64,000 bases of DNA. It comes from an uncultured Planctomycetales bacterium (GTDB taxonomy: Bacteria; Omnitrophota; Gorgyraeia; Zapsychrales; JANLHA01). Below, in pieces: positions 18,379-59,181 of the stretch. Within the stretch, counting starts at the first letter, position 1; the number at the start of each line of letters is the position of its first letter. The notes beneath the pieces are model-generated. The model made no database searches and was not told the origin of the DNA. It saw only the letters and a list, made by a program, of their open reading frames with translations. The stretch is from positions 127,104 through 191,103 of the forward strand of contig CAZAXH010000003.1 of the NCBI GenBank assembly GCA_964489065.1, read 5' to 3'. Made by a program: the position numbers and the translations under genes.

Positions 18379-19923
18379 ATGAAACCTATTCCCCTGTCTC
18401 CTCCTTTTTTAAAACGGCTGGCTCTCCAAGCTTTTCCTTGGGTGCTTTTTTTGTCTTGCCTGATTGTTCGGACCTGTTTCATCAGCCGGGGGCCGTATCA
18501 TGTCGACACTTTAAATCTTGTCATTCAGGCCCAGGCCACCTTAAAAGACCACCAGGTGCATTTTTTGTTTGGCTTCGGGTATCCGCTTACTGTGCTTCTA
18601 GCCGCGGGTTTTATTTGGGTAGGAGAGAGGCTCGGGCTGGAGGACCCGGTCCTGGCCGTTAACGCGATGAGCGTGTTTTTCAGCTCGGTAACGGTTTTGC
18701 TCACATATTACATGGGCAAGGCGCTTTTTAACGCGTCGGCCGGCGTTGTCAGCGCCCTGGTGTTATCGGTTTCCCCGATTTTTTTGGGACTTTCTGTGTA
18801 TGGGCAGAGCCAGATGCCGGCGCTGTGTTTTTTAATGGCCGGGATGTTTTTTTTAATCCGGGATTACAATCATCGTCCCCAGGATTCTTTTTTTATATCG
18901 GCGTATTTTTTGGGGTTGGCGGGAGCCGCGCGGATGCAGGATGCTTGCCTAATGTTGCCGGCGCTGTTGTTTTTGTTTTTTGTGCCTCCGGCGGCCGGCC
19001 GGTTGGACCGGTCGCCCTTTTTGCTTTCCCAGTTTTGGTTATGGGCCGGGACAGCTTTGTTTGTGGCCGTTGCGTTTCATGTCCCGTTTCTTTTTCAGGC
19101 GAACCGGGATGTCTATCTGAGCCAGCTTAGGCGTTTCTGGGCGGCGGGGCTCACGCAAAATTACCTTGGCTTAGACTCTTCCCGCTTGTTGTTGAGCGGG
19201 GTGTATCTTGTTAAATCAATGACCGAGACGGGGATGTTTTTGTCTTTCCTGGGACTGCTTGCCCTCACGCGTCGGCGGTGGCGCACGGCTGTTTTCCTCC
19301 TTTTATGGTTGCTCGGCCCGGTGCTTTTCTACGGGAACCTTAACACCACCTCCACCTCCCGTTTTTTTCTCCCGGCCCTGCCGCCGTTATGTTTGGCTTT
19401 AGGATTTTGTTTGTCGGCCCTTGTCCGGAAAGGGAAGGTTTTTCTGCTTGCCGGAGCGGCGGTTTTAATCATTATGATCAGCTTAATGGTCCAATATATG
19501 TTCCCCAAATTATGGTTTCGTCATACGACGGCCGCTTTGCCGGGATACAGCCTCTGGGCTGGCCGTCTTACCGAGCCCAACGCCGTGATTATAGCCGGAG
19601 ACGAGGCTTTGTTTATGATTTATTATTCAGGGCGTGAGACGCTGGTGCGGCCGCAGAGCTTGGAAGTCTTGTCCGAAATTCAATTGGAAAAGTTTAAGCA
19701 AACTGTCAATGATTTAATCTTCCAGGGGCGGCCGGTTTATATCACGGCGCCGGCGTTGTATTCCCATGATAAAGACAAACATTTTTCCGGAGCCATGGGC
19801 GCTATGTTCCGGTTTGTCCCGGTCGGCCAGCATATTTACGAAGATTGGCATCTGGGGCCGATGACTTTACAAATTCATCATTTTGCTTTATATAAAGTAG
19901 AGAGGAATGCCTCTGCGCCGTAA
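18379..19923 (+). CDS. GT-C-fold (ArnT/PMT/DUF2723-like) polytopic membrane glycosyltransferase-like protein, paralog 1
   Basis: About 515 aa, multi-TM; N-terminal GPYHVDTLNLVIQAQ...GYPLTVLL and C-terminal PVYIT...HFSG...YEDWH blocks shared with 36336..37889. Confidence 0.55.
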   Translation: MKPIPLSPPFLKRLALQAFPWVLFLSCLIVRTCFISRGPYHVDTLNLVIQAQATLKDHQVHFLFGFGYPLTVLLAAGFIWVGERLGLEDPVLAVNAMSVFFSSVTVLLTYYMGKALFNASAGVVSALVLSVSPIFLGLSVYGQSQMPALCFLMAGMFFLIRDYNHRPQDSFFISAYFLGLAGAARMQDACLMLPALLFLFFVPPAAGRLDRSPFLLSQFWLWAGTALFVAVAFHVPFLFQANRDVYLSQLRRFWAAGLTQNYLGLDSSRLLLSGVYLVKSMTETGMFLSFLGLLALTRRRWRTAVFLLLWLLGPVLFYGNLNTTSTSRFFLPALPPLCLALGFCLSALVRKGKVFLLAGAAVLIIMISLMVQYMFPKLWFRHTTAALPGYSLWAGRLTEPNAVIIAGDEALFMIYYSGRETLVRPQSLEVLSEIQLEKFKQTVNDLIFQGRPVYITAPALYSHDKDKHFSGAMGAMFRFVPVGQHIYEDWHLGPMTLQIHHFALYKVERNASAP

Positions 19924-22194: not shown

Positions 22195-24000
22195 TTATCG
22201 AAAGCAGCATATCCGGCCTTTGCCCTCCCTTTTGGCCTGATACAGGGCCTGATCCGTTTTTAAAATAATATCCCGGCGGTCACTGTGCGCCGAATATTCT
22301 CCGGCTCCGACGCTCACAGAAACCGGGCGTTTGCCTTTGAGATTTTTGATGCTCTCGGTCACCTTGCCGGCCACGATTCTCGCCTGCTCAATATTGGTCT
22401 GGGGCAGAATCGCCACAAATTCATCCCCCGCATAGCGGCATACCGTATCGACGGCCCGGAGATTATTTTTAAATACGGTGCTGATCCTTTTGAGCAGCAC
22501 GTCTCCTTCCAGATGCCCAAAATCGTCGTTGTAAGCTTTAAAGTTATCGATGTCGAGCATCAACAGACACATGGGGCTGTGATAGCGGGTGGCCCTTTCG
22601 ATTTCCTTGTCCAGCGTCCGAACGAAATAACGGTAATTATAAATACCGGTTAAAGGGTCGGATACAGACAGGTATTCCAGTTCCCGGTAATTCGTGGCAT
22701 TTTCTATCGACGTGGCCGCCTGCCGGACAATCGTGCATAGGATACGCAGGTCAATGTCTGCGAAAAAAGGGTCATGGGGGTTTTTTTTGTCCGCCACATT
22801 GACGACCCCGACCAGTTTATTTTGGAGCGTGATGGGGGCGATCATGAAGGATTTGTTCTTGTAACCCGGACGGTTTGGGCGGCAGAACTTTTTCCCTTCT
22901 TCAATGTTGTTTATGAGCAACGGCTGTCCTTCCTGAGCGACAATCCCGGCCAAGGGATCCCCTAATTTGATGCGCGTGGACGTGATATGCTCGGGATCCA
23001 CCCCCTTGGCCCCTCGGATCGTCAATTCTTTGCTGGTCGGATCCAGCAGCATGAGGGAACAGCGCTCGACTTCAAGGATTTCCGTGGCTTTTTCAATGAC
23101 AAAATCGACGAGATGGTTTAGATTGCTGATAGACACCATGGTCCGGTCGATGTTCAGGACCTGTTCCAGTTTACGTTTTTCCGTTTCGATTTCCTTGCGA
23201 AGGGCTTCACGTTTGATTTCTTCCTCTTTATTCTTGGAAATGTCTCTTACGAAAGACCACATGCCGGCAGCGTTCCCGGAGTGGTCGTGTAAGAGGTAGG
23301 TCCTCAACTCGACAGGGACAAGGGTGGCGTCTTTGCGGATAAATTCTTTTTCATAAAGCTCGGAATACCCTAGGGCCAAGACCTGTTCTTCCAATATTTT
23401 TTTTTCTTCCGAGTGCCAGTGCGGGGGCGTGATGTCCCAACAGTTCAGCGTTTTGATCTCCGGGGATTTGTACCCCAGCATGTCTTGGAAGGTATGGTTG
23501 AATTCCCGGATATGGCCGTTCATGTCAACCATCACGTACCCATCCCGGCTGGTTTCGTAAAGTTGCCGGTATCGCTTTTCGGATTCCATAATGGCGTGCT
23601 CAGGGCGTTTCCGGTCTGTAACATCAATGGCGTGCTCTAAAATTTGTTTGACACGGCCCTCCTGGTCAAAAACGGGATAGGCATTGATTTCAAAATAGCG
23701 ACGGGAACCTTTTTTGTCGAAATGAACGTGTTCCACGGTAACCGGTTTAAGGGTTTCTTTGATGATCATCAGGGGGCAGGGTAAATTCTGTTCGTGACAG
23801 GGGGTTTCAGATTGATGCATGGCGGTATAGCAGAGACAATCGGGGCCCAATTTGGATTGGCGGGCCGCTTTATTGGCCCCGATGATCCTATGCGTTGCGA
23901 TATCAATAATATAAAAAGGATCTATAATACCATCTATAATTTCTTGTAAATCATACTCGCCGTTTGGGGCGATATTTTTGGTGTGGATGTGCCGGGCCAT
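22195..24000 (-). CDS. PAS-PAS-GAF-GGDEF diguanylate cyclase (A-site variant AGDEF, I-site RxxD present)
   Basis: C-terminal GGDEF domain with RAVDTVCRYAGDEF; upstream GAF and two PAS-like regions; only convincing minus-strand gene in the window. Confidence 0.8.
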   Translation of the reverse strand: MARHIHTKNIAPNGEYDLQEIIDGIIDPFYIIDIATHRIIGANKAARQSKLGPDCLCYTAMHQSETPCHEQNLPCPLMIIKETLKPVTVEHVHFDKKGSRRYFEINAYPVFDQEGRVKQILEHAIDVTDRKRPEHAIMESEKRYRQLYETSRDGYVMVDMNGHIREFNHTFQDMLGYKSPEIKTLNCWDITPPHWHSEEKKILEEQVLALGYSELYEKEFIRKDATLVPVELRTYLLHDHSGNAAGMWSFVRDISKNKEEEIKREALRKEIETEKRKLEQVLNIDRTMVSISNLNHLVDFVIEKATEILEVERCSLMLLDPTSKELTIRGAKGVDPEHITSTRIKLGDPLAGIVAQEGQPLLINNIEEGKKFCRPNRPGYKNKSFMIAPITLQNKLVGVVNVADKKNPHDPFFADIDLRILCTIVRQAATSIENATNYRELEYLSVSDPLTGIYNYRYFVRTLDKEIERATRYHSPMCLLMLDIDNFKAYNDDFGHLEGDVLLKRISTVFKNNLRAVDTVCRYAGDEFVAILPQTNIEQARIVAGKVTESIKNLKGKRPVSVSVGAGEYSAHSDRRDIILKTDQALYQAKREGKGRICCFR

Positions 24001-29679: not shown

Positions 29680-31041
29680 ATGAACATTATACGGATTCAT
29701 AAAGGCCGGGACATCTGTTTGCCGGGCGCGGCCGAGCGTAAAAAAATATCATTAGCGCTCCCTTCCACGGTCGCGGTGCAGCCTTCTGATTTTTACGGTC
29801 TGTGTTTAAGGCCGGTTGTTAAGGCCGGGGATTCCGTTAAAGTCGGTTCCCCGCTTTTGGAACATAAGGATGACTGGCGGGTCAAAATTGTTTCTCCTGC
29901 CAGCGGAACGGTCTCCGGGATCATGCGGGGGGAAAAACGATCTTTATCGGCGGTTACGGTCCTTTGCGACGGCAAGCAGGACTCGCTTTCTTTCCCTAAA
30001 ATTTCTGCTGCGGAAATCAAAAATGTTTCTCCGGACAGCCTTGTTGAACGGATGCTGGTTGCCGGCGTGTGGCCGTGTCTTCGGCAGAGGCCTTTTTCTA
30101 AAATAGCGGACCCGGGCCGCCGGCCAAAAGCGATTTTTGTGCAGGCGCATATGACCGACCCCCTGTCCCCGGATTTGGATTTTGTCCTGGAAGGGCGCGA
30201 AGCGCGGTTTCATCAGGGCCTGGAGATTCTTAAAAGATTGACTCCTGGAAACGTGTTTGTCTGCTGTTCTCCTGCGGTGCGTTCTAGCGCGATCCGGGAG
30301 GCGAAAGGTGTTTCTGTCGTCGGGTTTTCCGGTCCGCACCCGGCCGGGAATATCAGTACGTTTATTCATCATCTCGATCCTGTCGGGAAAGGTGATCTTG
30401 TCTGGTATATAGGCGCAGAAGACGTTTGCCGCGTCGCGGACCTTATTTTGGAAGGGCGGTTTATCCCGCGGCGGACGATCGCGGTCACGGGAGAAAGGGC
30501 CCCAGCCCGGTTTTACGGCGAAACGATCTTGGGCGCGCCTCTCCGGCATCTCTTTCCCGGGCCACGGCCGGCCGGCTCGCGCTATATTTCCGGGAGCGTG
30601 TTAAGGGGCACGGATGTCGGCCTGGACGGATACGTATGTTTTTACGACCAGCAGGTGACAGCCCTGCCTCAAGGCGGGAACCGGGAGTTCCTGGGGTGGA
30701 TTCGCCCCGGGGGGAACAAATACAGTTTTTCCCGGACTTTTTTTCCGTCTTTATCCAGGAGGACGGCGGCTCCGATATCCCTAGATACCGACATGCACGG
30801 CAGCCGGCGGGCGATTGTTTTATCCCATCTGTATGACGATTATGTGGCCCTGGATGTTTTAACATATTTCTTGGTCCGCGCGATTACGGCGGGGGATATG
30901 GAAGAAGCCCTTCGCCTGGGGCTTTTGGAATGCGCGCAAGAGGATTTTGCCTTATGCTCGTTCGCCTGCGCATCCAAATTTGACGTGGGCGGCGTGATCC
31001 AACAGGGGCTGACACGGCTCGAAAAAGAGGGAGAGGAATAG
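29680..31041 (+). CDS. nqrA: Na+-translocating NADH:quinone oxidoreductase subunit A
   Basis: 453 aa, soluble subunit; first gene of the contiguous nqrABCDEF order. Confidence 0.8.
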   Translation: MNIIRIHKGRDICLPGAAERKKISLALPSTVAVQPSDFYGLCLRPVVKAGDSVKVGSPLLEHKDDWRVKIVSPASGTVSGIMRGEKRSLSAVTVLCDGKQDSLSFPKISAAEIKNVSPDSLVERMLVAGVWPCLRQRPFSKIADPGRRPKAIFVQAHMTDPLSPDLDFVLEGREARFHQGLEILKRLTPGNVFVCCSPAVRSSAIREAKGVSVVGFSGPHPAGNISTFIHHLDPVGKGDLVWYIGAEDVCRVADLILEGRFIPRRTIAVTGERAPARFYGETILGAPLRHLFPGPRPAGSRYISGSVLRGTDVGLDGYVCFYDQQVTALPQGGNREFLGWIRPGGNKYSFSRTFFPSLSRRTAAPISLDTDMHGSRRAIVLSHLYDDYVALDVLTYFLVRAITAGDMEEALRLGLLECAQEDFALCSFACASKFDVGGVIQQGLTRLEKEGEE

Positions 31042-31045
31042 TTCC

Positions 31046-32230
31046 GTGACGTTTCTGGCCCGAAAACTTCAAAGCCTGGGGCGGCATTTTTCCGCCGGCA
31101 GCCCGTTGGCTAAATTTTATCCTGTTTACGAGGCACTGGACACTTTTTTTTTCACCCCCGGAACCAGAACGCCCCAAGCCCCGTTTATCCGGGACTCACT
31201 CGATTTAAAGCGTGTCATGACCTTTGTTGTTATCAGCCTTTTGCCATGCCTGGCGGCCGGGGTTTACAACACCGGGTATCAGGTTCTTCTGGCGCGGGGA
31301 GAGGATATCCGTTTTTGGGCATGCGTGGGGCAGGGGCTGTTGAAAGTCCTGCCGATCATGCTGGTCGCGTACGCGGCCGGTGGTTTCTGGGAGGTGCTTT
31401 TTGCGGTGGTCCGCAAGCACGAGATCAGCGAAGGATTTCTCGTGACGGGGTTGTTGTGTACCCTTATTATGCCGCCCACAGTTCCCCTTTGGCAGGTCGC
31501 GGCGGGCGTCTCTTTCGGCGTGGTGATCGGGAAAGAGATTTTCGGCGGGACGGGATATAATGTTTTTAATCCGGCGCTGGTGTCTCGAGCGTTTTTGTTT
31601 TTTTCTTATCCGGCGCGGTTTTCCGGGGACCGGGTCTGGGTAGCGGTCGACGGGGTCAGCCGGGCCACGCCGCTGGCGGTGTTGTCCGCGGCCGGTCACG
31701 GCGGGCAGGCGGTGTCGGCCCTGCGGGAGGCCGGATACAGTTTTTCAAACATGTTCTGGGGGTTTATCCCCGGGTGTATCGGCGAGACGTCTAAATTCGC
31801 CTGCCTTTTGGGGCTGGTGTTTCTGTTGGTCACCGGCGTTGCCAGCTGGCGGATTGTCGCAGGTTGCGGCCTGGGGCTGCTTGTTACGAGCAGTTTCCTT
31901 TTTCTGTTGCGGGGGCCGGAGGCGCTCGTGTTTTTTTCTCTTCCGCCGTACTGGCATCTGGTGATGGGCGGGTTCGCGTTTGGGGCGGTTTTTATGGCCA
32001 CGGACCCGGTGTCGTCCTGTGCGACAAATCCCGGGCGGTGGATGTTCGGACTGCTGACCGGGGCGCTTGTCGTTCTGATCCGGGTGTTTAACCCCGCGTA
32101 TCCGGAAGGGGTTATGCTGGCCATCCTTTTTATGAACGCGTTCGCGCCGCTGATTGACCATTGTGTCGTGGAGCGCCACATTAAAAAACGCTCCGCGCGC
32201 CTCAAAGTGTTCAGGGAAAAATCCGGATGA
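31046..32230 (+). CDS. nqrB: Na+-NQR subunit B
   Basis: Polytopic; NqrB/RnfD-family FMATDPVS motif (FMN attachment region); GTG start. Confidence 0.85.
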   Translation: MTFLARKLQSLGRHFSAGSPLAKFYPVYEALDTFFFTPGTRTPQAPFIRDSLDLKRVMTFVVISLLPCLAAGVYNTGYQVLLARGEDIRFWACVGQGLLKVLPIMLVAYAAGGFWEVLFAVVRKHEISEGFLVTGLLCTLIMPPTVPLWQVAAGVSFGVVIGKEIFGGTGYNVFNPALVSRAFLFFSYPARFSGDRVWVAVDGVSRATPLAVLSAAGHGGQAVSALREAGYSFSNMFWGFIPGCIGETSKFACLLGLVFLLVTGVASWRIVAGCGLGLLVTSSFLFLLRGPEALVFFSLPPYWHLVMGGFAFGAVFMATDPVSSCATNPGRWMFGLLTGALVVLIRVFNPAYPEGVMLAILFMNAFAPLIDHCVVERHIKKRSARLKVFREKSG

Positions 32231-32943
32231 AAATTAACAAAGACAGCGCCCTTTATACGTTTGGATTTGTCCTGTTGATCTGTGTTGTCTGCAGTTGTTT
32301 GCTGGCCGCGGTTTCCGAAGGCCTGCGGGCCCGCAAAGAACTGAACGCGGCCAATGACATAAAAAAAAATATTCTTAAAGCCGTGGGCCTTAGAGAGCCG
32401 CTGTCTCGCCAGGCTAGCCCGAAGCAGGTCTTAGATGTATTTCAGAAAAAAATTGAAGAGACCGTGATCGACGCGCAGGGCCGTTTCGTCATTGGAAAAA
32501 AGCCGGACGCGATACAGGCGGGTGAAGAATTCTATCCGCTCTATATTTACCGGGAACAGGGAACTATTGTCGCTTATGCCTTTCCCATCGAAGGCAAGGG
32601 CTTGTGGTCTACGCTTTATGGGTATTTGGCCATTGAAGCGGATGGCCGGACGGTGCGGGGCATCACGTTTTATCAGCATGGCGAAACCCCTGGCCTCGGA
32701 GCGGAAATTGAAGAAGACGGGTTTCAGGATAATTTTAAAGGAAAGAAAATATGGGACGCGGCCGCCGGGACTACGGTCCCTGTCACGGTGGTCAAGGGCC
32801 GGGTGAAAGATGTCATCCCGGACGACCGGCAGGGGTTTTATGTGGACGGCATCAGCGGCGCGACGATGACGTGTGGGGGCGTCAATGCGCTTCTGGCCCG
32901 GTGGCTGAAGGTGTACGAACCGTTTTTAAGAAGCCGAAGATAA
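32227..32943 (+). CDS. nqrC: Na+-NQR subunit C (FMN-binding)
   Basis: Single N-terminal TM plus FMN-binding GISGATMT motif. Confidence 0.85.
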   Translation: MKINKDSALYTFGFVLLICVVCSCLLAAVSEGLRARKELNAANDIKKNILKAVGLREPLSRQASPKQVLDVFQKKIEETVIDAQGRFVIGKKPDAIQAGEEFYPLYIYREQGTIVAYAFPIEGKGLWSTLYGYLAIEADGRTVRGITFYQHGETPGLGAEIEEDGFQDNFKGKKIWDAAAGTTVPVTVVKGRVKDVIPDDRQGFYVDGISGATMTCGGVNALLARWLKVYEPFLRSRR

Positions 32944-32967
32944 TTTGAAACTTAAAGGATATCTGTT

Positions 32968-33600
32968 ATGGCGTTTGGTTTAAGCAAAAAAAACCGTCGG
33001 ATTGTCCGGGAGGCTTTGTGGAACAGCAATCCCGTCACTTTTCATGTCCTGGGGATATGCTCGGCCTTGGCGGTGACCGTGCAGTTGAAAACGGCGCTGG
33101 TGATGGGTGCGACGCTGACGTTTGTGCTGTCTTTGTCCAATACGATCATTTCTCTTTTGAGGAATTTTATCCCCGGTAAGATCCGGATTATCGTGCAGCT
33201 TTTGGTGATTTCCTCCATGGTAGTCATCGCGGATCAGGTCTTAAAGGCGTATATGTACGGTGTCAGCAAGCAGTTGAGCGTGTTTGTCGGCCTGATTATC
33301 ACTAATTGCATTGTGATGGGCCGCGCCGAAGCGTACGCCATGCGCAATCCACCTTTTAAATCTTTTCTGGACGGGATCGGCAACGGGCTGGGGTATAGCG
33401 CGGTTTTAATCTGTGTGGCTGTGTTCCGGGAGTTTTTGGGCAGCGGGACGCTGCTGGGCGCGCGCGTTGTTCCGGAACGCTTTTATTCGTCCGGGTATTC
33501 GGATTGCGGGCTGATGGTTTTGGCTCCGGGGGCGTTTTTCCTTTTGGGCGCGATTGTCTGGCTGCAGCGGTATATATCGGGCTATACCGAAAATCCGTAA
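32968..33600 (+). CDS. nqrD: Na+-NQR subunit D
   Basis: 210-aa 6-TM NqrD/RnfE-family membrane protein in the nqr order. Confidence 0.85.
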
Positions 33601-33646
33601 GGACGGTCGCCGGCGTCCAAGCAGGCCCCGGGGAGGAGAATATGTT

Positions 33647-34255
33647 ATGTTAGAGCTGATCAATCTGGGAATTAAAAGTGTTTTTGTCGAGAATATCCTG
33701 CTGGCGTATTTCCTGGGGATGTGTTCCTTCCTGGCCTGTTCCAAGAAAATGGAAACCGCTTGGGGGCTGGGGCTGGCCGTTATGTTTGTGATGGTGGTCA
33801 CCGTGCCGGTTAACTGGGCGGCCAACCATTTTTTGTTAAAAAAGGGGGCGCTGGTCTGGGCAGGACTGCCGGAGGTGGATTTGAGCTTTTTGAGGTTTAT
33901 GGCTTTTATTGCGGTCATCGCGGCGATGGTGCAGATTTTGGAAATGGCCATTGATCGGGTCAGCCCGAAACTATACGCCGCTTTGGGAATTTTTTTGCCT
34001 CTTATCGCCGTGAATTGCGCGGTCTTGGGGGGGGCGCTGTTTATCGCGGAGCGGGAGTATTCTTTGGTGGAATCATGGGTGTTTGGGGCCGGGTCCGGAG
34101 CCGGTTGGGCGCTGGCGATCGTCGCTATGGCCGCCATACGGAAAAAGCTCGGGTATTCCGACATTCCCGTGCCGTTGAGGGGGCTTGGGATCACCCTGAT
34201 GCTGACCGGGCTTATGGCGTTAGGGTTCATGTGTTTTGCCGGAATCCGATTGTAA
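33647..34255 (+). CDS. nqrE: Na+-NQR subunit E
   Basis: 203-aa NqrE/RnfA-family membrane protein; GGGAGGAG RBS before Met 33647 (the ORF-track start at 33554 overlaps nqrD). Confidence 0.85.
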
Positions 34256-34273
34256 AGGAGAAAACAGAACGCG

Positions 34274-35500
34274 ATGGCGTTTTTACCGTTTGTTTTATTG
34301 AGCACCGCGGTCTTTTCGGGGATTATTTTTTGTCTGGTTTTTGTCCTTCATCTGGCGGAGTCGAGGGTCGCCAGAAAAGGGGCTTGCCGGATCACGCTTA
34401 ATGAAGGCAAAAAGACGCTTGTTGTCGGCGCCGGAAAAAAATTACTGATGGCACTGGCCGAAGAGCGTGTCTTCCTGCCTTCGGCCTGTGGCGGCGGCGG
34501 CACGTGCGGGGTGTGCAAGTGCCGGGTCCTGGAAGGCGGGGGAGACATCCTTCCTACGGAAACAGGCCTGTTGACCCGGCGTGAACAAAAAGACCGAATG
34601 CGCCTCGCCTGCCAGGTGAAGGTTCGGGAGGATCTGGTCATCCGCGTGCCGGAGGAAGTTTTTAATATCAGAAAGTTTGCCTGCGCCGTGCGGTCTAACG
34701 CCAACGTCGCCACGTTTATCAAAGAACTGGTGCTGGATGTGCCGGAGCCCTTTGATTTTAAAGCCGGTGCGTACGTTCAGGTTTATGTTCCGCCGTACCG
34801 GCTGAGTTTTCGGTCTTTTGATATTCCTCCTCGGTACCGCCCGGACTGGGACGAGAGCGGGCTCTGGGGGTTGACCGCCGAAAACAACGAGGAAACGTTC
34901 CGGGGGTATTCCATGGCCAATCATCCCGGCGAAAAAGGAAAGCTCGTGCTGAATGTCCGCATCGCCCTTCCGCCGTCCCGGGACATGGGCGTGCCGGCGG
35001 GGATTGTTTCGTCTTATCTGTTTAACCTGAAACCCGGAGACACAGTGGAGGTCAGCGGCCCGTACGGTGAATTTTTTATTAAGGAGACTCAAAGGGAAAT
35101 GATTTATATCGGCGGCGGGGCCGGGATGGCGCCGTTAAGAAGCCATTTGATGTTTTTGTTTCGCGAGCTCAAGACCCGGGACCGCCAGATCTCTTTTTGG
35201 TACGGCGCCCGTTCGTTCCGGGAGATGTTTTATGCGGAGGAGTTTCGCGCCCTGGAGAAGGATTTTTCAAATTTTTCTTATACCGTAGCCCTGTCCGAGC
35301 CGCGTGCCTTTGATAACTGGAGCGGGCCGACCGGGTTTATTCATCAGGTTTTATATGACCAGTATTTAAAAAACCACAAGGAGCCGGAAGAGGCGGAGTA
35401 TTACCTTTGCGGGCCGCCGGCCATGATCGACGCGGTTTTGGGCCTGTTGGATTCACTGGGCGTGCCGCCGGACATGGTCGCTTATGACAAATTCGGGTAA
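34274..35500 (+). CDS. nqrF: Na+-NQR subunit F (2Fe-2S ferredoxin plus FAD/NADH-binding)
   Basis: N-terminal TM, CGGGGTCGVCKC 2Fe-2S motif, RGYSMAN FAD-binding motif and GGGAGMAP NADH-binding motif. Confidence 0.9.
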   Translation: MAFLPFVLLSTAVFSGIIFCLVFVLHLAESRVARKGACRITLNEGKKTLVVGAGKKLLMALAEERVFLPSACGGGGTCGVCKCRVLEGGGDILPTETGLLTRREQKDRMRLACQVKVREDLVIRVPEEVFNIRKFACAVRSNANVATFIKELVLDVPEPFDFKAGAYVQVYVPPYRLSFRSFDIPPRYRPDWDESGLWGLTAENNEETFRGYSMANHPGEKGKLVLNVRIALPPSRDMGVPAGIVSSYLFNLKPGDTVEVSGPYGEFFIKETQREMIYIGGGAGMAPLRSHLMFLFRELKTRDRQISFWYGARSFREMFYAEEFRALEKDFSNFSYTVALSEPRAFDNWSGPTGFIHQVLYDQYLKNHKEPEEAEYYLCGPPAMIDAVLGLLDSLGVPPDMVAYDKFG

Positions 35501-35547: not shown

Positions 35548-36333
35548 ATGCCAAATCATCCTACCGTGACCGCGGTTGTGATCACGAAAAACGAAGAGGC
35601 CCGGATCCGGGCCTGCCTGGATTCCCTGAAGGGCTGGGTCGATGAAATTGTCGTGGTCGATGATATGTCAGAGGACCGCACGGTGGAGATCGCCCGGGAC
35701 GAGTACGGGGCGACCGTGATCCGGCACCCGTTGGAGCAGGATTTTGCCGCCCAGCGCAACCGCGGCATGGCGGCCGCGCGCTCGGAATGGATTCTGGAAA
35801 TGGACGCCGATGAGGTTGTCCCTCCGGAATCCGCCCGGAAGATCAAGGAAGGCCTGGCCGCGGCCGGGGAATGCCAGGGTTTTGTCATCCAGAGGATTAA
35901 TTGCGTTTTTGACCGTCCGCTCAAAAATCCGGGCCGCTCTGACAGCCTGCGCATCGTGAGAAAAAATAAAGGCCAAAGCCGCGGCGTCGTCCATGAATCC
36001 CTTTTTGTCGACGGACCGGTTGGCCGGTTGGAGGCCTGTGTCTATCATTACAACCTGCCTTGTATCAGCCATTTCATCGAGAGGAACAACCATTATTCCG
36101 ATTCGGAAAGCGAAGAGATCGTGTCGACCGAAGGCCGGATTTCCGCCGCGAAGTATAAGAAGCTGATTTTATTTAAGAGTGCGAGGATTTTTTATAAAAG
36201 TTATTTTAAAAATAAGGGCCGCCAGGACGGAATTCACGGGTTTATCCGCGCCGTGCTCCACGCCGTCAAGCCGGTGCTCGTGTGGCTGAAAGTCCTGGAG
36301 CGGGCCATTAAAGACGGGAAGCTGGATCCCTAA
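35548..36333 (+). CDS. Family 2 glycosyltransferase (GT-A fold)
   Basis: AVVITKNEE...VVVDDMSEDRT...EMDADE (DxD) GT2 motifs; translationally adjacent to the GT-C paralog. Confidence 0.75.
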   Translation: MPNHPTVTAVVITKNEEARIRACLDSLKGWVDEIVVVDDMSEDRTVEIARDEYGATVIRHPLEQDFAAQRNRGMAAARSEWILEMDADEVVPPESARKIKEGLAAAGECQGFVIQRINCVFDRPLKNPGRSDSLRIVRKNKGQSRGVVHESLFVDGPVGRLEACVYHYNLPCISHFIERNNHYSDSESEEIVSTEGRISAAKYKKLILFKSARIFYKSYFKNKGRQDGIHGFIRAVLHAVKPVLVWLKVLERAIKDGKLDP

Positions 36334-36335
36334 GG

Positions 36336-37889
36336 ATGGACGTTGTGTTCTCTTTGACTTCAACGCGTAAAAGTTTTTTGCTTTTGGCTGGCGTTTTTAT
36401 TTTCAGCCTGGCTTTAAGGCTCGCTTTGATCAGCAAGGGGCCTTATAATCTCGACACGCTGAACCTCGCGATCCAGTCCCAGAGAACGCTCGAGACCGGC
36501 CGGCTGCATCATTTGTTCGGGACTGGGTATCCGTTGACGGTGTTGCTCGGGGCGCTTTTTATCTTAGCGGCGGATATGTTCACCGCCGCTGACCCTGTTT
36601 TTGCGGTGAACCTGATGAGCGTGGTTTTCAGCGCCGGGGCGGTGGCGCTGATTTATCTTGTCGCCCAAGAGCGCTATGGCCGGACAGCGGCGGCATGGGC
36701 CGCCGCGTCGTTTTCCCTGTGCCCGATTTTTATGTCGCTTTCTGTTTACGGCATGAGCCACGCCCCGGAGATGTTTTTTCTTCTGTTAAGCGTGTTATTG
36801 TTGCAGCGGTTCTTCAAAAGCGGCCGCTTCCAGGACATGGTTCTGTCCGCGGCGTGTTTTGGTGCCATGGGCGCGGCCAGACTGCAGGACATGGTTCTCC
36901 TCTTTCCGGCCGTGTGTTTTTGGGTGACGTTCGGGCAGCCCGCGGCAACAGGGCTGCCCCGTATATCCTTAAAAAGCCGGGGTATACGCCTTGTGGTTTT
37001 TTCCATCGTATCCGTGGGCACAGCGGTCGCGTTTCATCTCCCGTATTTCCTGCAGAATAACCAGATGTATGGCGAAAACCTGTCGCAGTTTTGGCAGAGA
37101 GGGCTTCAGCATAAATATTTGGGGGTTTTGACGCCCCATTTATTGATCGCCGGAGATCATCTGGCGGAAAATTTTACCTGGCCAGGGCTGATTTTAAGCC
37201 TTTTAGGGCTGGCGCTGATCGTCCGCCATGAGGCGACTCGGGGGATATTTTTTTTGCTCTGGATCGCCGGGCCGCTTTTTTTTTACGGGAACCATCGTTT
37301 TATCATTAACCCGCGTTTTTTGTGCGTGATCCTTCCCCCGCTGGTGATCGGACAAGGATATATGATGGTGAAGGTGCTCCGGAAATACCCGGCGGCCCGC
37401 TGGGTGTTGATCCCGGTGTTTGTTCTCATGATTTATGGGACGTTCAGCCGGGTTTATCCGGTATTGAAGTTCCGTCACGAACACGCCCTGTTGCCGGATT
37501 TTGTCCGGTGGGTCGCCGCGAAGGTTGAGCCGGGCGCCCGGATCATCACCGCGGATGAAGCGCTTTTTTATAAGCATTACACGTCGTGCGAGATCTTTCC
37601 TCGGCCTGCGGATGTGCTCCGTTCGGCGCCCGAAGACTTGGCGCGTTTTTACAACACGCTGGACGCGCTCCTGGACCGGGATGTCCCGGTTTATATCACG
37701 ACCGCTTCGCTTTATGCGTATGACCGGGACCGCCATTTTTCCGGTTACTTTAAAAGCCGTTACCCCGGGGAGCGGGTTGGGAGCCATTATTACGAAGATT
37801 GGCACATGGGATCCGCCCAGATCCAGGTCTTTTTGTTTGACTTGTACCGGGTGAGAAAGGAAAGAAAGGAAAGGGACAGTCCCCCATAA
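36336..37889 (+). CDS. GT-C-fold membrane glycosyltransferase-like protein, paralog 2
   Basis: 517 aa; shares GPYNLDTLNLAIQSQ...GYPLTVLL and PVYIT...HFSG...YEDWH blocks with 18379..19923. Confidence 0.55.
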   Translation: MDVVFSLTSTRKSFLLLAGVFIFSLALRLALISKGPYNLDTLNLAIQSQRTLETGRLHHLFGTGYPLTVLLGALFILAADMFTAADPVFAVNLMSVVFSAGAVALIYLVAQERYGRTAAAWAAASFSLCPIFMSLSVYGMSHAPEMFFLLLSVLLLQRFFKSGRFQDMVLSAACFGAMGAARLQDMVLLFPAVCFWVTFGQPAATGLPRISLKSRGIRLVVFSIVSVGTAVAFHLPYFLQNNQMYGENLSQFWQRGLQHKYLGVLTPHLLIAGDHLAENFTWPGLILSLLGLALIVRHEATRGIFFLLWIAGPLFFYGNHRFIINPRFLCVILPPLVIGQGYMMVKVLRKYPAARWVLIPVFVLMIYGTFSRVYPVLKFRHEHALLPDFVRWVAAKVEPGARIITADEALFYKHYTSCEIFPRPADVLRSAPEDLARFYNTLDALLDRDVPVYITTASLYAYDRDRHFSGYFKSRYPGERVGSHYYEDWHMGSAQIQVFLFDLYRVRKERKERDSPP

Positions 37890-38035
37890 GGGACAGGGCG
37901 CTCGTTTGATATAATGACGAAACAGGCGCAGGGTGTTATTATAGGAGCGTAGAAAGAAGCCCTCCCGGCTGGGGCTAATTTAAAATTTTGTTGTTTGGTG
38001 TAAAAGATAAGCACTTTCTCTGGGTATCAGGCGCG

Positions 38036-39625
38036 ATGAAAGGAAATAATGATTTTATATTTTTGTGTCGGGTTTGTTTTTGGTCCCTTGTTGTTGTGTC
38101 GCTGTCCGTTTTGCCATCCCTCACGTTTGCCGCGTTGTCCAGTGTGCCCGATCCCTCGGCCCCGCATAAATTATTCAGTCCTGTCATAAGTGTGGAAAAC
38201 CTCCCTGTGGTTAAAGAGCCGGTCAGGGGCTTGAGCCTTGAGCAGGTGGAGGAGGTCCGCGCACTGTTTAAAAACGAACGGTTTGGCGCGCTGAGCGTCA
38301 TGATGGATAAATATCTGGCCGTGATCGAATCCGATCCGGCCGATGAGTTTTTGATTCATGATTTTCTCTCGATTTTTTCGGAGCCATCCCCTGACTGCGA
38401 GCGCTTGCTTCTTAAATGGAAAGAAACGTTCCCGTATAACTACCAGCCGTATTTGGCCTTGGCCCAGTATTATCATCAGCGGGGATGGGAAAACCGCGGG
38501 TCCAAAATTGTCCAGGAACCTTCGAATGAGCAGTTTCAGAAAATGGAGGACTGTTTTCAGCAAGCAGAGGAAAATATTAAAAAGGTTTTAAAAATGAAGC
38601 CTAATTTGTTGCCCGCGCATGGAATGTTAATCAGCCTTTATGGCGTTTCCAGGCCCGACCGGGAGAAGGAACTGATTACTGCGCGCGCGCTTGAATTGTT
38701 TCCCCATTCTTATCTTATCCGGAAAGAGATCGTGTCTTCGCAAACGCCGCGATGGGGCGGAAGCTATGAACAGATGCAGTCGGTCGCCCGGGATGCGGAG
38801 CCATATAATCGTATCAACCCGAACATGACGAAATTGTATGGTTATATATATGAAGATCAGGCGTGGTATCTGAAGCGGGCCCAGCAATATGATAAGGCGA
38901 TCGACCTGCTGCGGGACGCCTTGGCTTTTGGAGAACGCGCAGCCCTTCATGAGCAGATCGCGGAAATATATTATTATAATTTTAAAGATTCCCCCCGGGC
39001 TTTGGAGGAAATTAACGAAGCAGTCCGGCTCGGCCTGGGAGCATCCTGTTATCTTCTTCGTTCAAAAATATATTATAAGTTGGAAGATTATGCAAATTCG
39101 CTGCGTGATCTGGAAACGGCAATCCGGGTCGATCCATTTTATGACGAAGCGGGGAAATGGGCCCGGGGGGCCGGCCGGGACTTGATGCTTCAGGGGCAGG
39201 AAAAATATAAGTCCAGGCATGTGCGGGCCGCGATTGGCTTGTTTAATGTGTCCCTGAAATTTAATGACCGGGATTACGAAACATTTTACTGGCGGGGGAA
39301 GGCTTTTTTTGACAAAGGGGACGCGGGAGCCGCACTTAAAGATTTTGAGCAGGCGCTGGCCTTGAACCCCGGGGATTTTCAGTCCGTCAGCATGATCAGT
39401 GATATCGCCAGTTCTGAAAGGCAGTTTGATTACAGCCTCGGCTACTGGGAGCGGTTCCTGAAGCTAGAACCAAAGCACGCAGGAGCTTATCTTAAGCGGG
39501 CCAGGGTGTATTACTATAAAAATGATTTTGAGAGTTGTTTGAAAGATTTAAACCAAAGTTGCCGCTTGGGGAACCGGGAAGCGTGCACCCGGATTAATAA
39601 TGTTAAAACCAAGGGCAGGTTCTAA
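38036..39625 (+). CDS. Exported TPR-repeat protein
   Basis: Signal peptide; multiple TPR-like helical repeats (e.g. ALAQYYHQRGW, YYKLEDYANSLRDLETAIRVDP, FYWRGKAFFDKGDAGAALKDFEQALALNP). Confidence 0.65.
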   Translation: MKGNNDFIFLCRVCFWSLVVVSLSVLPSLTFAALSSVPDPSAPHKLFSPVISVENLPVVKEPVRGLSLEQVEEVRALFKNERFGALSVMMDKYLAVIESDPADEFLIHDFLSIFSEPSPDCERLLLKWKETFPYNYQPYLALAQYYHQRGWENRGSKIVQEPSNEQFQKMEDCFQQAEENIKKVLKMKPNLLPAHGMLISLYGVSRPDREKELITARALELFPHSYLIRKEIVSSQTPRWGGSYEQMQSVARDAEPYNRINPNMTKLYGYIYEDQAWYLKRAQQYDKAIDLLRDALAFGERAALHEQIAEIYYYNFKDSPRALEEINEAVRLGLGASCYLLRSKIYYKLEDYANSLRDLETAIRVDPFYDEAGKWARGAGRDLMLQGQEKYKSRHVRAAIGLFNVSLKFNDRDYETFYWRGKAFFDKGDAGAALKDFEQALALNPGDFQSVSMISDIASSERQFDYSLGYWERFLKLEPKHAGAYLKRARVYYYKNDFESCLKDLNQSCRLGNREACTRINNVKTKGRF

Positions 39626-54909: not shown

Positions 54910-55242
54910 GTGATGAAACATACAATCCAAAATATATTATCCGGGCTTCCGGAGAGCAGCCAGGAAGAAATATTTACGAGCCTTTTGAAGACCGGGCATT
55001 TTGATTTGGAACGCATTATTTCCACAGGACAAACAACTCCGCCGGGGGAATGGCTTTCGCAAGACAGGCATGAATGGGTGCTGGTTTTAAGCGGCCGGGC
55101 GCGGTTACGTTTTCAGGATGCGGAGAGTTTTCATGAGCTTGAACCCGGCGACGCTGTCTTTATCCCGTCTGGATGTCCTCACCGGGTCGAATGGACCGAC
55201 CCGGCCCAAAAAACCGTATGGCTAGCCCTGCATTACGCATGA
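54910..55242 (+). CDS. Cupin-domain protein
   Basis: 110 aa; cupin barrel motifs (HEWVLVLSGRARLRF...GDAVFIPSGCPHRVE). Confidence 0.6.
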   Translation: MMKHTIQNILSGLPESSQEEIFTSLLKTGHFDLERIISTGQTTPPGEWLSQDRHEWVLVLSGRARLRFQDAESFHELEPGDAVFIPSGCPHRVEWTDPAQKTVWLALHYA

Positions 55243-57459: not shown

Positions 57460-59181
57460 ATGAAAAGGCTTGGGAGCGGGCTTCCTCTTTCTGGGGCGTA
57501 TGGTGCGTTTGTCATTATTTTTATTGTTCTGATGACGGTCTGGTTGGCACGGACAACGTATTATATCAACGCCTGGCCGTCGGACTCCGCGGCGTCGTAT
57601 ATTCCAACCGCGGAGAAGCTGTTTGAGATGCGCTTTTTTTCGCAGATGCATGACCTGCATCTGCACGGATTAAGCAAACTTAATATGCGGGGGAAAGAAG
57701 CGCTTGTCGTGGCCATCGCGGTCCTGCAGAGGCTTCTCGGAGACACAAAAAGCCTTTATCCGAATATCCTGCTTTTAATTTTGTCCGCGGGGCTTTCCGC
57801 TGGGCTTCTGTTCCTGATTTTTAAAAGGATTTTTAACGCCGCCGTCGGGTTTGTTGCATTTGTGCTTTTCGCCTGCAGTTTCTGGCCGTATATGTATGTC
57901 CTGCTGGGCGCCCATCAGCCCCTGGTCCTCTGCAATTTTCTTCTTTCATTTTTTTTCCTGCAGCGTGCGGGGCAAAAACGAGTTTATCCTTTTTTGGGCG
58001 GGCTGTTTTTCGGGCTGGTCTTTTTTTCTTCTCCCACGGCCATTATGTATATGCCGTATTACGGGCTGTTGTTGTTGACGGATACTCTGGGCTTCCGTCC
58101 GTCCAGGGTTTTTTCCGCTGAAGCCGGCCGGCATTTTTTGTTTTTTTGCTCCGGCCTGGCCGTCGTGCTGTTGGCGTTCACGCTGCCGCGGCCTTTAGAG
58201 AGCCTGAAGATGTTTATTATTTATGTGTTTTTGAGCCGGGGGGGGAACCATTTTCAGCATTACGGGGATTATCTGAGCCGGTTTTTCCCGGTGCCGGTTT
58301 TTTTCCGGGGCGGCGGATGGCTTTGGATTATTAAATATTTCATGCTGACCATGCCAGTCCTGTTTGCCGCCTGCGGGGGGAGCGTGGCCTACCTTCTGGC
58401 GTGTTCGACCAAACCCCGAAAGACGCTTATGCTGATTCTCCTCGGGCTATCAACGCCCTTGGCGGTGGAGATCATCCAGGTGGCCCAGTTCGGCCGGAAT
58501 TATTTTTCCTGGTTTTTCGGCATGATTTTTTTGGTCTGCGCGGCGGCGGGTCATTATATGGACAGCCATTCCCCTTTTTCCTGGAAAAAACACCGGGCCT
58601 TTTCCGCGATTTTGGCGGTGGTTCTGGCGTGTCACGTTATTTTTAACGCGAAGGTCTTTTTTCAAGATGTCCTGCCGTCCCGTTTGGCCACGACATACGC
58701 GTATGCGTGGCTTTACCAGCGGAACATTGGACAGGTTCTGGTTTACCAGGAGCATCACAGCAACACGTTTGCGGCGGATGTCCTGAATAATCCCAAAGTG
58801 CCGGCAAAAATTAAGTTTTTGGGCATCACGTCTTTTCTACAGGCCCGGGAGGGATATGTCCTTTTGCCGGGGACCAGCGGGACGACGATTTGGAATGATT
58901 GTTCCCGCGGCCCTTTTACCGGCGATCCGGCCCTGCAGGCGATCATTGCGGCCGGGCTTCTGCCGGAATGCGCCGTAGCCCGGTTTCATACGGTGGCGTC
59001 GAGCCGGTACTGGCCGCAGGAAGAAGAAGTCTGTACTTACCGGGACCTTATGCTGGGGCAGGTGTCGGAGGCGGACCGGCGCCTGAGTGAAATTTATATC
59101 CTGGACGTGGCGCGGTTGCGGAAAGTGTACACGGAACAAATTTTAAAAAACAGGGCAGAGGAAAATTATGATAAACAATAA
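57460..59181 (+). CDS. GT-C-fold polytopic membrane glycosyltransferase-like protein, distant paralog 3
   Basis: 573 aa, about 12 TM; middle blocks resemble paralogs 1 and 2 (…FNAAVGFVAFVLFACSFWPYMYVLLGAHQP…). Confidence 0.45.
   Translation: MKRLGSGLPLSGAYGAFVIIFIVLMTVWLARTTYYINAWPSDSAASYIPTAEKLFEMRFFSQMHDLHLHGLSKLNMRGKEALVVAIAVLQRLLGDTKSLYPNILLLILSAGLSAGLLFLIFKRIFNAAVGFVAFVLFACSFWPYMYVLLGAHQPLVLCNFLLSFFFLQRAGQKRVYPFLGGLFFGLVFFSSPTAIMYMPYYGLLLLTDTLGFRPSRVFSAEAGRHFLFFCSGLAVVLLAFTLPRPLESLKMFIIYVFLSRGGNHFQHYGDYLSRFFPVPVFFRGGGWLWIIKYFMLTMPVLFAACGGSVAYLLACSTKPRKTLMLILLGLSTPLAVEIIQVAQFGRNYFSWFFGMIFLVCAAAGHYMDSHSPFSWKKHRAFSAILAVVLACHVIFNAKVFFQDVLPSRLATTYAYAWLYQRNIGQVLVYQEHHSNTFAADVLNNPKVPAKIKFLGITSFLQAREGYVLLPGTSGTTIWNDCSRGPFTGDPALQAIIAAGLLPECAVARFHTVASSRYWPQEEEVCTYRDLMLGQVSEADRRLSEIYILDVARLRKVYTEQILKNRAEENYDKQ

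Follow-up and report, generated by a model that had tools for sequence, protein, structure and literature searches.

A GT-C-fold glycosyltransferase of a subfamily apparently restricted to Omnitrophota, paired with a WaaE-like family 2 glycosyltransferase downstream of the nqr operon

A 64-kb stretch of an Omnitrophota genome (contig CAZAXH010000003.1, positions 127,104 to 191,103; hereafter the window, numbered from its first nucleotide) carries three plus-strand genes at 35548-39625, which encode a family 2 glycosyltransferase (GT2), an integral membrane protein (GT-C2), and an exported protein with a DUF4034 domain and tetratricopeptide repeats (TPR). GT-C2 is a GT-C-fold glycosyltransferase of an uncharacterized subfamily with a distinctive C-terminal YEDWH domain, and this subfamily is apparently restricted to one phylum, Omnitrophota. 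The GT2 next to it belongs, by sequence and structure, to the WaaE/LgtF-SunS-GmaR clade and not to the donor-synthase type. A previous reading of the DNA letters, made without database searches (the sequence-only reading), had located the three open reading frames (ORFs) correctly and had likened the pair to ArnC/ArnT or Ppm/Pmt, that is, to a polyprenyl-phosphate-sugar synthase plus its transferase; the transferase half of that proposal held and the synthase half was not supported. The three genes are:

35548..36333, plus strand: GT2, 261 aa; Pfam PF00535, E 7.5e-25
36336..37889, plus strand: GT-C2, GT-C-fold integral membrane glycosyltransferase, 517 aa; Pfam PMT_2
38036..39625, plus strand: exported DUF4034 + TPR protein; TPR_2 E 2.6e-15, DUF4034 41 bits

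The Membrane Protein GT-C2

Profile and structure searches both place GT-C2 among GT-C enzymes. It matches Pfam PMT_2 at 40.3 bits (cutoff 26.1), and its AlphaFold2 (AF2) model, built on 46 homologues, has a pLDDT of 92.6 and a pTM of 0.92. All 28 Foldseek matches of the model in the PDB at E<=1e-3 were GT-C enzymes, namely STT3/PglB/AglB (E 5e-9 to 1e-7), ArnT (2e-7), ALG9/ALG12, Pmt4, DPY19, AftA, and PIG-U (the GT-C-fold subunit of glycosylphosphatidylinositol transamidase). The GT-C look noted earlier from sequence is borne out by these results. A transporter or other non-glycosyltransferase identity was considered and ruled out; Foldseek matches to ClC, APC, and GPCR structures had probabilities of 0.2 or less.

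GT-C2 is predicted to have about 12 membrane helices followed by a C-terminal alpha/beta domain (approximately residues 385-512, about 130 aa). The aspartate that the sequence-only reading had pointed out in the first extracytoplasmic loop, D40 in the motif GPYNLD, is invariant in the 46 family sequences and lies just after helix 11-30 of the AF2 model; by analogy with other GT-C enzymes, this first-loop residue is likely the catalytic aspartate. Also invariant in these sequences are N92, P130, R182, G291, R327, R380, and W489.

Searches of the PDB with the GT-C2 sequence, alone or as a profile, gave no significant match (the best was ArnT 5ezm, E 0.37 with the profile). No NCBIfam model was matched, the archaeal STT3 model scoring 18.5 bits against a cutoff of 450. 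In Pfam, PMT (PF02366; 19.8 vs 22.7 bits) and the TMEM260-like family (16.8 vs 24.2 bits) were below their cutoffs, and STT3 was unmatched.

A family profile search of 1.84 billion representatives returned 397 clusters (50% identity) at E<=1e-30, all of about 500 aa and all matched end to end. Every member with a source name is from Candidatus Omnitrophota, and the names given are “glycosyltransferase family 39 protein” (NCBI PGAP) or “DUF2723 domain-containing protein.” Genomic context was taken from about 35 distinct loci encoding family members (numbered L001 onward), in which all ORFs were screened with family and GT2 hidden Markov models (HMMs); the ORFs in these loci are crude calls. The loci were retrieved with two narrower alignments (A2 and A4), and the broad 46-sequence alignment had no stretch conserved enough. 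The five genome loci retrieved with GT-C2 are all Omnitrophota metagenome-assembled genomes. Several family copies occur per genome, with tandem duplicates in L003, L026, L037, and L038. No experimental description of the family was found in the literature on Omnitrophota glycosyltransferases or bacterial TMTC-like enzymes, and sources use generic names only, in agreement with the earlier view that the system is undescribed.

The divergence of GT-C2 differs from that of its neighbors. Compared with its closest relative (L010, 5903-7465), GT-C2 is 78% identical in amino acids (dN 0.133, dS 0.445), with the lowest identity at residues 161-240, and the flanking nqrF, GT2, TPR, and trkH genes are 91-98% identical to those of L010, with dS of 0.11-0.21. 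This excess suggests that the GT-C gene alone was replaced by another allele or has been diversifying.

The Adjacent GT2

The GT2 has the GT-A fold of family 2, with a DxD motif at D86-A-D88 and three C-terminal amphipathic helices across residues 173-255. Its invariant residues are D38, D43, D86, D88, H149, and H167. No hydrophobic segment reaches the transmembrane (TM) threshold, so no TM segment is predicted.

As a single sequence, the GT2 matched GmaR in the PDB at 8e-19 (residues 2-177), SunS at about 1e-13, and DPMS at 1e-5 over the N-terminal 94 residues only. A profile of 40 homologues matched GmaR at 3.5e-39 (positions 4-179), SunS at 7.5e-24, and ThuS at 1.1e-20; weaker matches were DPMS (3.8e-11, positions 2-103), ArnC (1.5e-6, 31 bits, positions 2-141), and GtrB (1.3e-5, positions 3-121). 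These last three cover no more than the generic nucleotide-binding half at the N-terminus of the protein, and they rank under GmaR, SunS, ThuS, and TarS in the profile search and under many more by structure. The AF2 model (pLDDT 96) matched SunS/ThuS in Foldseek at about 1e-17, seven orders of magnitude ahead of the next match (2.7e-10), with DPMS at rank 31 and ArnC at rank 41 (TM-score 0.39). The NCBIfam models for dolichyl-P hexose transferase and PpgS scored 27 bits against cutoffs of 370-375.

A positive control for these searches was provided by a 232-aa GT2 encoded near family members at other loci (L026, L037, and L052). Its residues 2-207 align with DPMS (2.9e-14) and its residues 3-205 with ArnC (1.4e-10), its top NCBIfam matches are ArnC, PgfS, and AglJ, and judged from its sequence it is of the true DPMS/ArnC-like donor-synthase type. 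The window GT2 lacks such a match over the whole catalytic domain, the criterion for polyprenyl-phosphate glycosyltransferases, and to judge by these alignments it falls outside that group. Membership in the DPMS/ArnC/GtrB group was ruled out by profile coverage, structural rank, and comparison with the L026 control, and the earlier assignment of the GT2 as an ArnC/Ppm-like synthase is replaced by the GmaR/SunS/ThuS clade.

The genomic context of GT2 homologues points toward lipopolysaccharide (LPS) and glycan clusters. Several homologues carry the JGI name “(heptosyl)LPS beta-1,4-glucosyltransferase.” Context was read from the nearest non-syntenic homologues with informative neighbors (L015, L017, L018, and L020). 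Omnitrophota homologues with 48% and 39% identity lie beside a Glyco_transf_9 heptosyltransferase, an MsbA-like ABC transporter, a GT4, and sugar-nucleotide genes, and homologues in Gottesmanbacteria and Nitrospina (34% identity each) adjoin Wzy_C and other glycosyltransferases. The window GT2 itself follows nqrF. Clustering of the GT2 with cytoplasmic polysaccharide synthases had been named in advance as telling against the sequence-only reading, and the company these homologues keep (heptosyltransferase, MsbA-like, Wzy_C, and GT4 genes) is of that kind. In two complete genomes, no second member of the GT2 family was found among the 120 matches listed.

The closest non-syntenic homologue (55% identity) lies in L014 (5001-8227), where the GT2, a methyltransferase, and a 583-aa protein with multiple TM segments are encoded in succession. 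The latter matches PMT_2 below threshold (E 0.014), has an hhalign probability of 0.2%, and shows no similarity to GT-C3 (described below). This run may be another GT2/GT-C-like pairing.

Conservation of the Locus

Two further features of the window are needed to follow the gene order:

29680..35500, plus strand: nqrABCDEF operon; Pfam families of orthologous genes in L001/L002
42380..42709, plus strand: 109-aa membrane protein, syntenic marker; tblastn 68-80% identity to the 109-aa proteins of L001/L002

The GT2 starts 47 nt past the nqrF stop codon, with an AGGAG-like (GGAG-type) ribosome-binding site upstream, and the GT-C2 ATG lies 2 nt past the GT2 stop. The TPR ORF (37988-39625) opens at a TTG at 37988, and the ATG at 38036 is taken as the likely start because the N-terminus is then signal-peptide-like. 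The protein has an N-terminal hydrophobic segment at residues 8-26, and its L002 orthologue also begins with a signal-like hydrophobic segment. The GC content of the TPR gene is lower than that of the glycosyltransferase genes. The nqrABCDEF operon upstream of the GT2 is complete, and trkH/trkA lie downstream of the TPR gene.

A WaaE-like GT2 was found next to a GT-C gene in only five of the approximately 35 loci (the window, L001, L002, L009, and L010). The pair follows nqrF in all five genomes, whose NqrF proteins are 74-92% identical, and it persists down to 51% GT-C identity across this five-genome clade. The pairing is peculiar to this lineage and is located after the nqr operon, itself a conserved syntenic anchor that has no part in glycosylation. 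The invariant nqrF-GT2 adjacency led to a functional link with Nqr being considered, and this was set aside because nothing beyond synteny in close relatives speaks for it.

Orthologues of the TPR protein occur in L010 (92% identity) and L002 (57-58%) and are absent from L001; L009 is cut by a contig end. The gene for the 109-aa membrane protein comes right after the GT-C gene in L001 (9957-10286), after the TPR gene in L002 (11622-11951), and after trkHA in the window. This shifting position indicates insertions downstream of GT-C2, of the TPR gene in some genomes and of trkHA in the window and L010. The slot downstream of GT-C2 is insertion-prone, the 109-aa membrane protein gene is the original downstream neighbor, and the TPR gene is a facultative neighbor. 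L007 has a more distant family member in the same larger neighborhood (DRTGG, GAF-ANTAR, amt, and P-II genes) with no nqr, GT2, or TPR gene, which suggests that the GT-C gene there predates its present neighbors. The partner sets described by the sequence-only reading are present in the window, but the GT2, the TPR protein, and the DsbA-like partner of GT-C1 (see below) are conserved among close relatives only, and synteny in close relatives is weak evidence of function.

Paralogs of GT-C2 in the Window

Two other membrane proteins of the window had been grouped with GT-C2 as three paralogous loci, and their features are as follows:

18379..19923, plus strand: GT-C1, paralog of GT-C2; 38% identity, family HMM 653 bits
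19907..20593, plus strand: DsbA/thioredoxin-like membrane-anchored protein; Thioredoxin_4 E 1.5e-25, DSBA 2.4e-13
57460..59181, plus strand: GT-C3, distant GT-C-superfamily membrane protein; PMT_2 27.6 bits, cutoff 26.1

GT-C1 aligns with GT-C2 over 491 aa (38% identity, E 4e-105), and both carry the GPY(H/N)xD and YEDWH blocks. GT-C1 is over cutoff for three Pfam families, PMT_2 (46.6 bits), STT3 (31.5 bits, cutoff 24.5), and TMEM260-like (27.7 bits). The DsbA-like gene overlaps the end of GT-C1 by 17 nt; its product has a TM segment at residues 23-41 that forms an N-terminal anchor and a CSAC motif in the context FQCSAC. This gene is kept after GT-C1 only in L012 and L013, and the order CDF transporter, GT-C1, DsbA-like protein was found only in the two closest genomes.

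For GT-C3, BLASTP gave nothing significant against GT-C1 or GT-C2 (E 0.55 and 0.035, the best over 67 aa), and the family HMM did not match it at E<=1e-5. With hhalign it aligned to the family profile with a probability of 64% (E 6.7e-5), over the membrane core only (columns 85-370). GT-C3 as a third paralog was ruled out by BLASTP and the family HMM; it has no significant full-length similarity and lacks the N- and C-terminal signature blocks. By these comparisons the window holds two true paralogs, GT-C1 and GT-C2, and one distant GT-C-superfamily protein, GT-C3, so of the three proposed paralogs GT-C3 remains related at the superfamily level only.

The genes around GT-C3 are as the sequence-only reading described them, Lnt plus a duplicated domain. 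Lnt (55173-57425) lies upstream of GT-C3 and carries a C-terminal extension of about 280 aa. Over its last approximately 125 aa, this extension shares 40% identity (E 1e-21) with the C-terminal domain of an exported 205-aa protein (59168-59785), so that copies of the shared domain, which has no Pfam match, flank GT-C3. A gene of the inositol-monophosphatase family (59791-60687) comes after the gene for the 205-aa protein.

Neighbors of the GT-C Family at Other Loci

An exported STI1-DP protein is the most recurrent neighbor of the family. It is encoded immediately downstream of the GT-C gene on the same strand in 10 of the 29 loci with enough flanking sequence, once upstream, and again in L052. 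These proteins (165-210 aa; for example L005 7560-8075 and L039 6469-6969) combine a signal peptide with a small beta-rich domain, a linker rich in Ser, Thr, and Gln, and DP repeats of the STI1/HOP (ubiquilin-like) kind, with PF17830 scores of up to 33.6 bits. The L031 ORF is 283 aa long, probably through N-terminal over-extension of the ORF call. A periplasmic STI1-like domain is unusual.

Seven loci encode a convergent TMTC-like protein of 540-611 aa with about 9-11 membrane helices, FVLDDFDFI in the first loop, and C-terminal TPRs, and in four of the seven a GT2 of 232-274 aa lies between the TMTC-like gene and the GT-C gene. A module in which genes for the TMTC-like protein and the DPMS-like GT2 face one or two family paralogs, followed by an exported STI1-DP-like protein, recurs in Omnitrophota (L026, L028, L037, L045, and L052). 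The DPMS-like GT2 is also present in both complete genomes that have the nqr-GT2-GT-C locus (P0327, a 3.35-Mb contig, and P0328, a 3.36-Mb chromosome). In the first of these genomes the locus is L052 (6244-11034; ERZ21869602 ctg94842l, 479-496 kb), where genes for the TMTC-like protein with TPRs and the DPMS-like GT2 are convergent with a third GT-C paralog (family HMM 488 bits, with ISKGPYHLD and YEDWH), which is followed by an STI1-like gene. The ArnC/ArnT-type arrangement that the sequence-only reading proposed does not describe the locus at 35548-39625, but a DPMS/ArnC-like GT2 with a family GT-C and TPRs exists in L052, where the GT2 is a different one. None of these module genes (DPMS-like GT2, TMTC-like, or STI1-like) was found in the 64-kb window.

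Comparison with Known Systems

GT-C2 fits the GT-C superfamily and falls outside ArnT/GT83, PMT/GT39, STT3/PglB, and fused-TPR TMTC/TMEM260 enzymes by the features that define each group. ArnT (GT83) shares with it the GT-C fold, a length of about 520-550 aa, a C-terminal soluble domain, Pfam PMT_2, and an adjacent GT2 gene, and the two structures superpose with a TM-score of 0.55-0.57 by either normalization (Foldseek E 2e-7). The ArnT sequence match is not significant (E 0.37), however, and an NCBIfam match is lacking. In addition, the window GT2 is not ArnC-like, Ara4N (4-amino-4-deoxy-L-arabinose) pathway genes are absent, and there are several GT-C paralogs per genome.

Enzymes of the PMT/POMT (GT39), TMTC1-4, and TMEM260 groups, which work with DPM1/Ppm1, resemble the family in fold and in the PGAP name “glycosyltransferase family 39 protein,” and GT-C1 is over the TMEM260-like Pfam cutoff. 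In relatives, the GT-C family is also linked to the DPMS-like GT2 and the TMTC-like membrane and TPR protein. TPR modules go with TMTC and TMEM260 enzymes (PMC7801869, PMC10214176). Unlike PMT, GT-C2 is below the Pfam PMT cutoff, has no MIR domain match in Pfam, and has in loop 1 a single conserved Asp, D40 (followed by T/x), in place of a DE pair. Unlike TMTC and TMEM260, its TPR protein is encoded by a separate, facultative gene 98-146 nt downstream and is not fused C-terminally. The C-terminal YEDWH domain is unique to the GT-C2 family, and the window GT2 is not DPM1-like.

The oligosaccharyltransferases STT3, PglB, and AglB provide the best structural matches of GT-C2, and GT-C1 is over the Pfam STT3 cutoff. 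GT-C2 differs in having no WWDxG motif, in carrying PVYIT and YEDWH, and in its much smaller periplasmic domain, and no genes for lipid-linked-oligosaccharide assembly lie near it. Ost3/Ost6 are thioredoxin-like subunits of oligosaccharyltransferase (OST), and the CxxC thioredoxin-like partner of GT-C1 recalls them.

The window GT2 resembles GmaR over the full catalytic core and SunS/ThuS by sequence and structure, and its length (about 255 aa) and C-terminal helical tail are like those of the JGI “(heptosyl)LPS beta-1,4-glucosyltransferase” proteins of the WaaE/LgtF type. The N-terminal domain of GmaR moves N-acetylglucosamine directly onto flagellin (PMC9638930). In contrast to WaaE/LgtF, GmaR, and SunS, the window GT2 lies after the nqr operon beside a GT-C gene, not in an LPS core, flagellar, or glycocin cluster, and it lacks the fused TPR of GmaR.

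Proposed Mechanism and Alternatives

By analogy with all characterized GT-C enzymes, GT-C2 would act on the periplasmic face of the membrane and take its sugar from a polyprenyl-phosphate carrier, with D40, past the first membrane helix, as the putative catalytic residue. As related genomes suggest, the lipid-linked donor would most likely be made by a separate DPMS/ArnC-like GT2 encoded elsewhere. The window GT2 would transfer sugar from a nucleotide sugar directly to a cytoplasmic-face acceptor, for which a lipid-linked glycan such as LPS core is the likeliest candidate; this acceptor would differ from that of GT-C2, possibly within the same glycoconjugate pathway. The least certain steps concern the acceptors of the GT-C paralogs, which may be exported proteins that receive O-glycosylation of the PMT/TMTC/TMEM260 kind, with the periplasmic protein encoded directly downstream of each paralog as a possible acceptor-recruiting partner or substrate.

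Exported proteins are favored as acceptors because the paralogs pair with periplasmic protein-binding or protein-folding modules (STI1-DP-like, thioredoxin/DsbA-like CxxC, and TPR), because the family is also linked to a TMTC-like enzyme, and because the pattern echoes the TPRs of TMTC/TMEM260 and the thioredoxin subunits of OST. That the acceptor of GT-C2 is of this kind we regard as an evenly balanced proposition. The account as a whole (an Omnitrophota GT-C with its donor made elsewhere, a local direct-transfer GT2, and exported-protein acceptors) is our tentative preference, and we place it a little below an even chance.

Several points weigh against this account. The donor, the acceptor, and the sidedness of the GT-C family are all assigned by analogy. 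The 2-nt gap between the GT2 and GT-C2 and the retention of the pair in five genomes down to 51% GT-C identity argue for some functional coupling, which the account leaves vague. The presence of a DPMS-like GT2 in the window organism is extrapolated from relatives (NqrF is 75% identical to that of the window in L002 and 74% in L001, and L037 derives from the sludge assembly that also yielded the closest relative). The protein-binding-partner pattern is made up of three partner types; exported proteins are common, and part of the pattern could be chance. Moreover, ArnT is the best sequence-level PDB match of GT-C2 (at a non-significant E of 0.37) and the GT2 family occurs in LPS-type contexts, and an LPS or lipid acceptor of GT-C2 is a serious rival.

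ArnT and the Rhizobium enzymes RgtA-D work in the periplasm, where they modify lipid A or core with sugar taken from a polyprenyl-P-sugar. If the window pair decorates LPS, the GT2 would be a WaaE/LgtF-like cytoplasmic core glycosyltransferase and the GT-C would use a polyprenyl-P-sugar to add a residue to lipid A or core in the periplasm after MsbA flipping, and the two would be co-expressed since they act on the same molecule. The JGI name, the homologues beside heptosyltransferase, MsbA-like, and Wzy_C genes, the ArnT fold match, and the 2-nt gap are consistent with this, and the nqr-linked GT2 may be the sole copy, given the absence of a second among the matches listed for the two complete genomes. 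However, no LPS or sugar-nucleotide genes occur in the 64-kb window, the other paralogs adjoin STI1-like, DsbA-like, TPR, and TMTC-like genes and not LPS genes, and several paralogs per genome with tandem duplications are unusual for ArnT-type enzymes. We consider LPS decoration unlikely, with a real share of the probability nonetheless.

A bolder form of the protein-acceptor account would see in Omnitrophota a modular, endoplasmic reticulum-like system of periplasmic protein glycosylation, in which one DPMS-like GT2 supplies GT-C paralogs that have separate acceptor-recruiting subunits. The subunits would be the TPR/DUF4034 protein, the membrane-anchored thioredoxin/DsbA-like CxxC protein, and the STI1-DP-like protein, which would parallel the TPRs of TMTC/TMEM260 and Ost3/Ost6 of OST. 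The fast-diverging GT-C gene might then tune the surface glycoproteome, with the WaaE-like GT2 as a further step peculiar to this lineage. We offer this as speculation and think it rather unlikely.

It is also conceivable that there is no module, and that GT2, GT-C, and TPR genes of unrelated pathways are neighbors by descent in one clade, their association being an artifact of comparing close relatives. The partner sets are indeed confined to genomes whose NqrF proteins are 74-92% identical, one slot received both the TPR gene and trkHA, the surrounding genes are unrelated housekeeping genes, and the divergence history of the GT-C gene (dS 0.445) differs from that of its neighbors (0.11-0.21). 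On the other side, the 2-nt GT2/GT-C junction and the 17-nt overlap of GT-C1 with the DsbA-like gene point to co-translation, and the two genes have stayed together even as the GT-C diverged to 51% identity. We judge a neighborhood by descent alone improbable.

In the model of the sequence-only reading, the GT2 makes a polyprenyl-phosphate-monosaccharide in the cytoplasm, the translationally coupled GT-C transfers the sugar in the periplasm, and the TPR protein is a substrate or specificity factor. The 2-nt gap and the pair's presence in five genomes agree with this, membrane docking is conceivable for the basic amphipathic C-terminal helices of the GT2, and the 55% homologue in L014 has, two genes away, a multi-TM protein that matches PMT_2 below threshold (E 0.014). 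Ppm1-type synthases can also be without TM helices. Against it, DPMS, ArnC, and GtrB cover only the generic N-terminal half of the GT2 at low ranks, the relevant NCBIfam scores (27 bits) are far from their cutoffs, and a GT2 that does match DPMS/ArnC over its whole catalytic domain is encoded elsewhere in this lineage. No counterpart of the window GT2 adjoins the GT-C gene in about 30 other family loci, and the probable positional equivalent of GT-C2 in L007 lacks one as well. This model seems highly improbable.

Least probable of all is an OST-like system, in which the GT-C would move a lipid-PP-linked glycan en bloc to proteins and the GT2 would elongate that glycan in the cytoplasm in the manner of PglI: the top fold matches of GT-C2 (STT3, PglB, and AglB), the STT3 score of GT-C1, its coupling to an Ost3/Ost6-like partner, and a weak GT2 profile match to a PglI-type enzyme (1.1e-8) are outweighed by the missing WWDxG motif, the C-terminal domain of only about 130 aa with YEDWH, the lack of an initiating phosphoglycosyltransferase, a flippase, or further glycosyltransferases nearby, the NCBIfam archaeal STT3 score (18.5 bits vs 450), and the monosaccharide-carrier (DPMS/ArnC) type of the linked GT2 in relatives.

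Significance

The Omnitrophota are uncultured bacteria, often of ultra-small size and perhaps dependent on a host. To our knowledge, their envelope biology is essentially unknown, and a multi-paralog GT-C family, named so far in this phylum alone, offers a concrete point of entry to the way they decorate their cell surface. If the acceptors are proteins, as in the account we prefer, the family would follow the PMT/TMTC/TMEM260/OST logic in bacterial form, with a gene of its own for each recognition module, and the rules of substrate selection could then be teased apart by experiment. For annotation, the locus teaches that a GT2 beside a GT-C is not automatically a donor synthase of ArnC or Ppm type; here it is of another GT2 class.

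Other Features of the Window

The remaining genes of the window are housekeeping genes, including pst/phoU, GlnRS, a CDF transporter, GAF-ANTAR, two amt, GSIII, nadE, lnt, and carA. Genes for LPS, capsule, or sugar nucleotides were found nowhere in the 64 kb. Promoter and terminator scans gave matches at consensus level that were not clearly above those in shuffled sequence, and they were not used. Among the 57 listed ORFs of at least 180 aa, the only minus-strand ones that do not lie inside a larger plus-strand ORF are 22195-24000 (the GGDEF/PAS/GAF gene) and 63046-63669. GC skew is positive in all 2-kb bins, and together with the strand bias this is what a long leading-strand stretch of chromosome would show.

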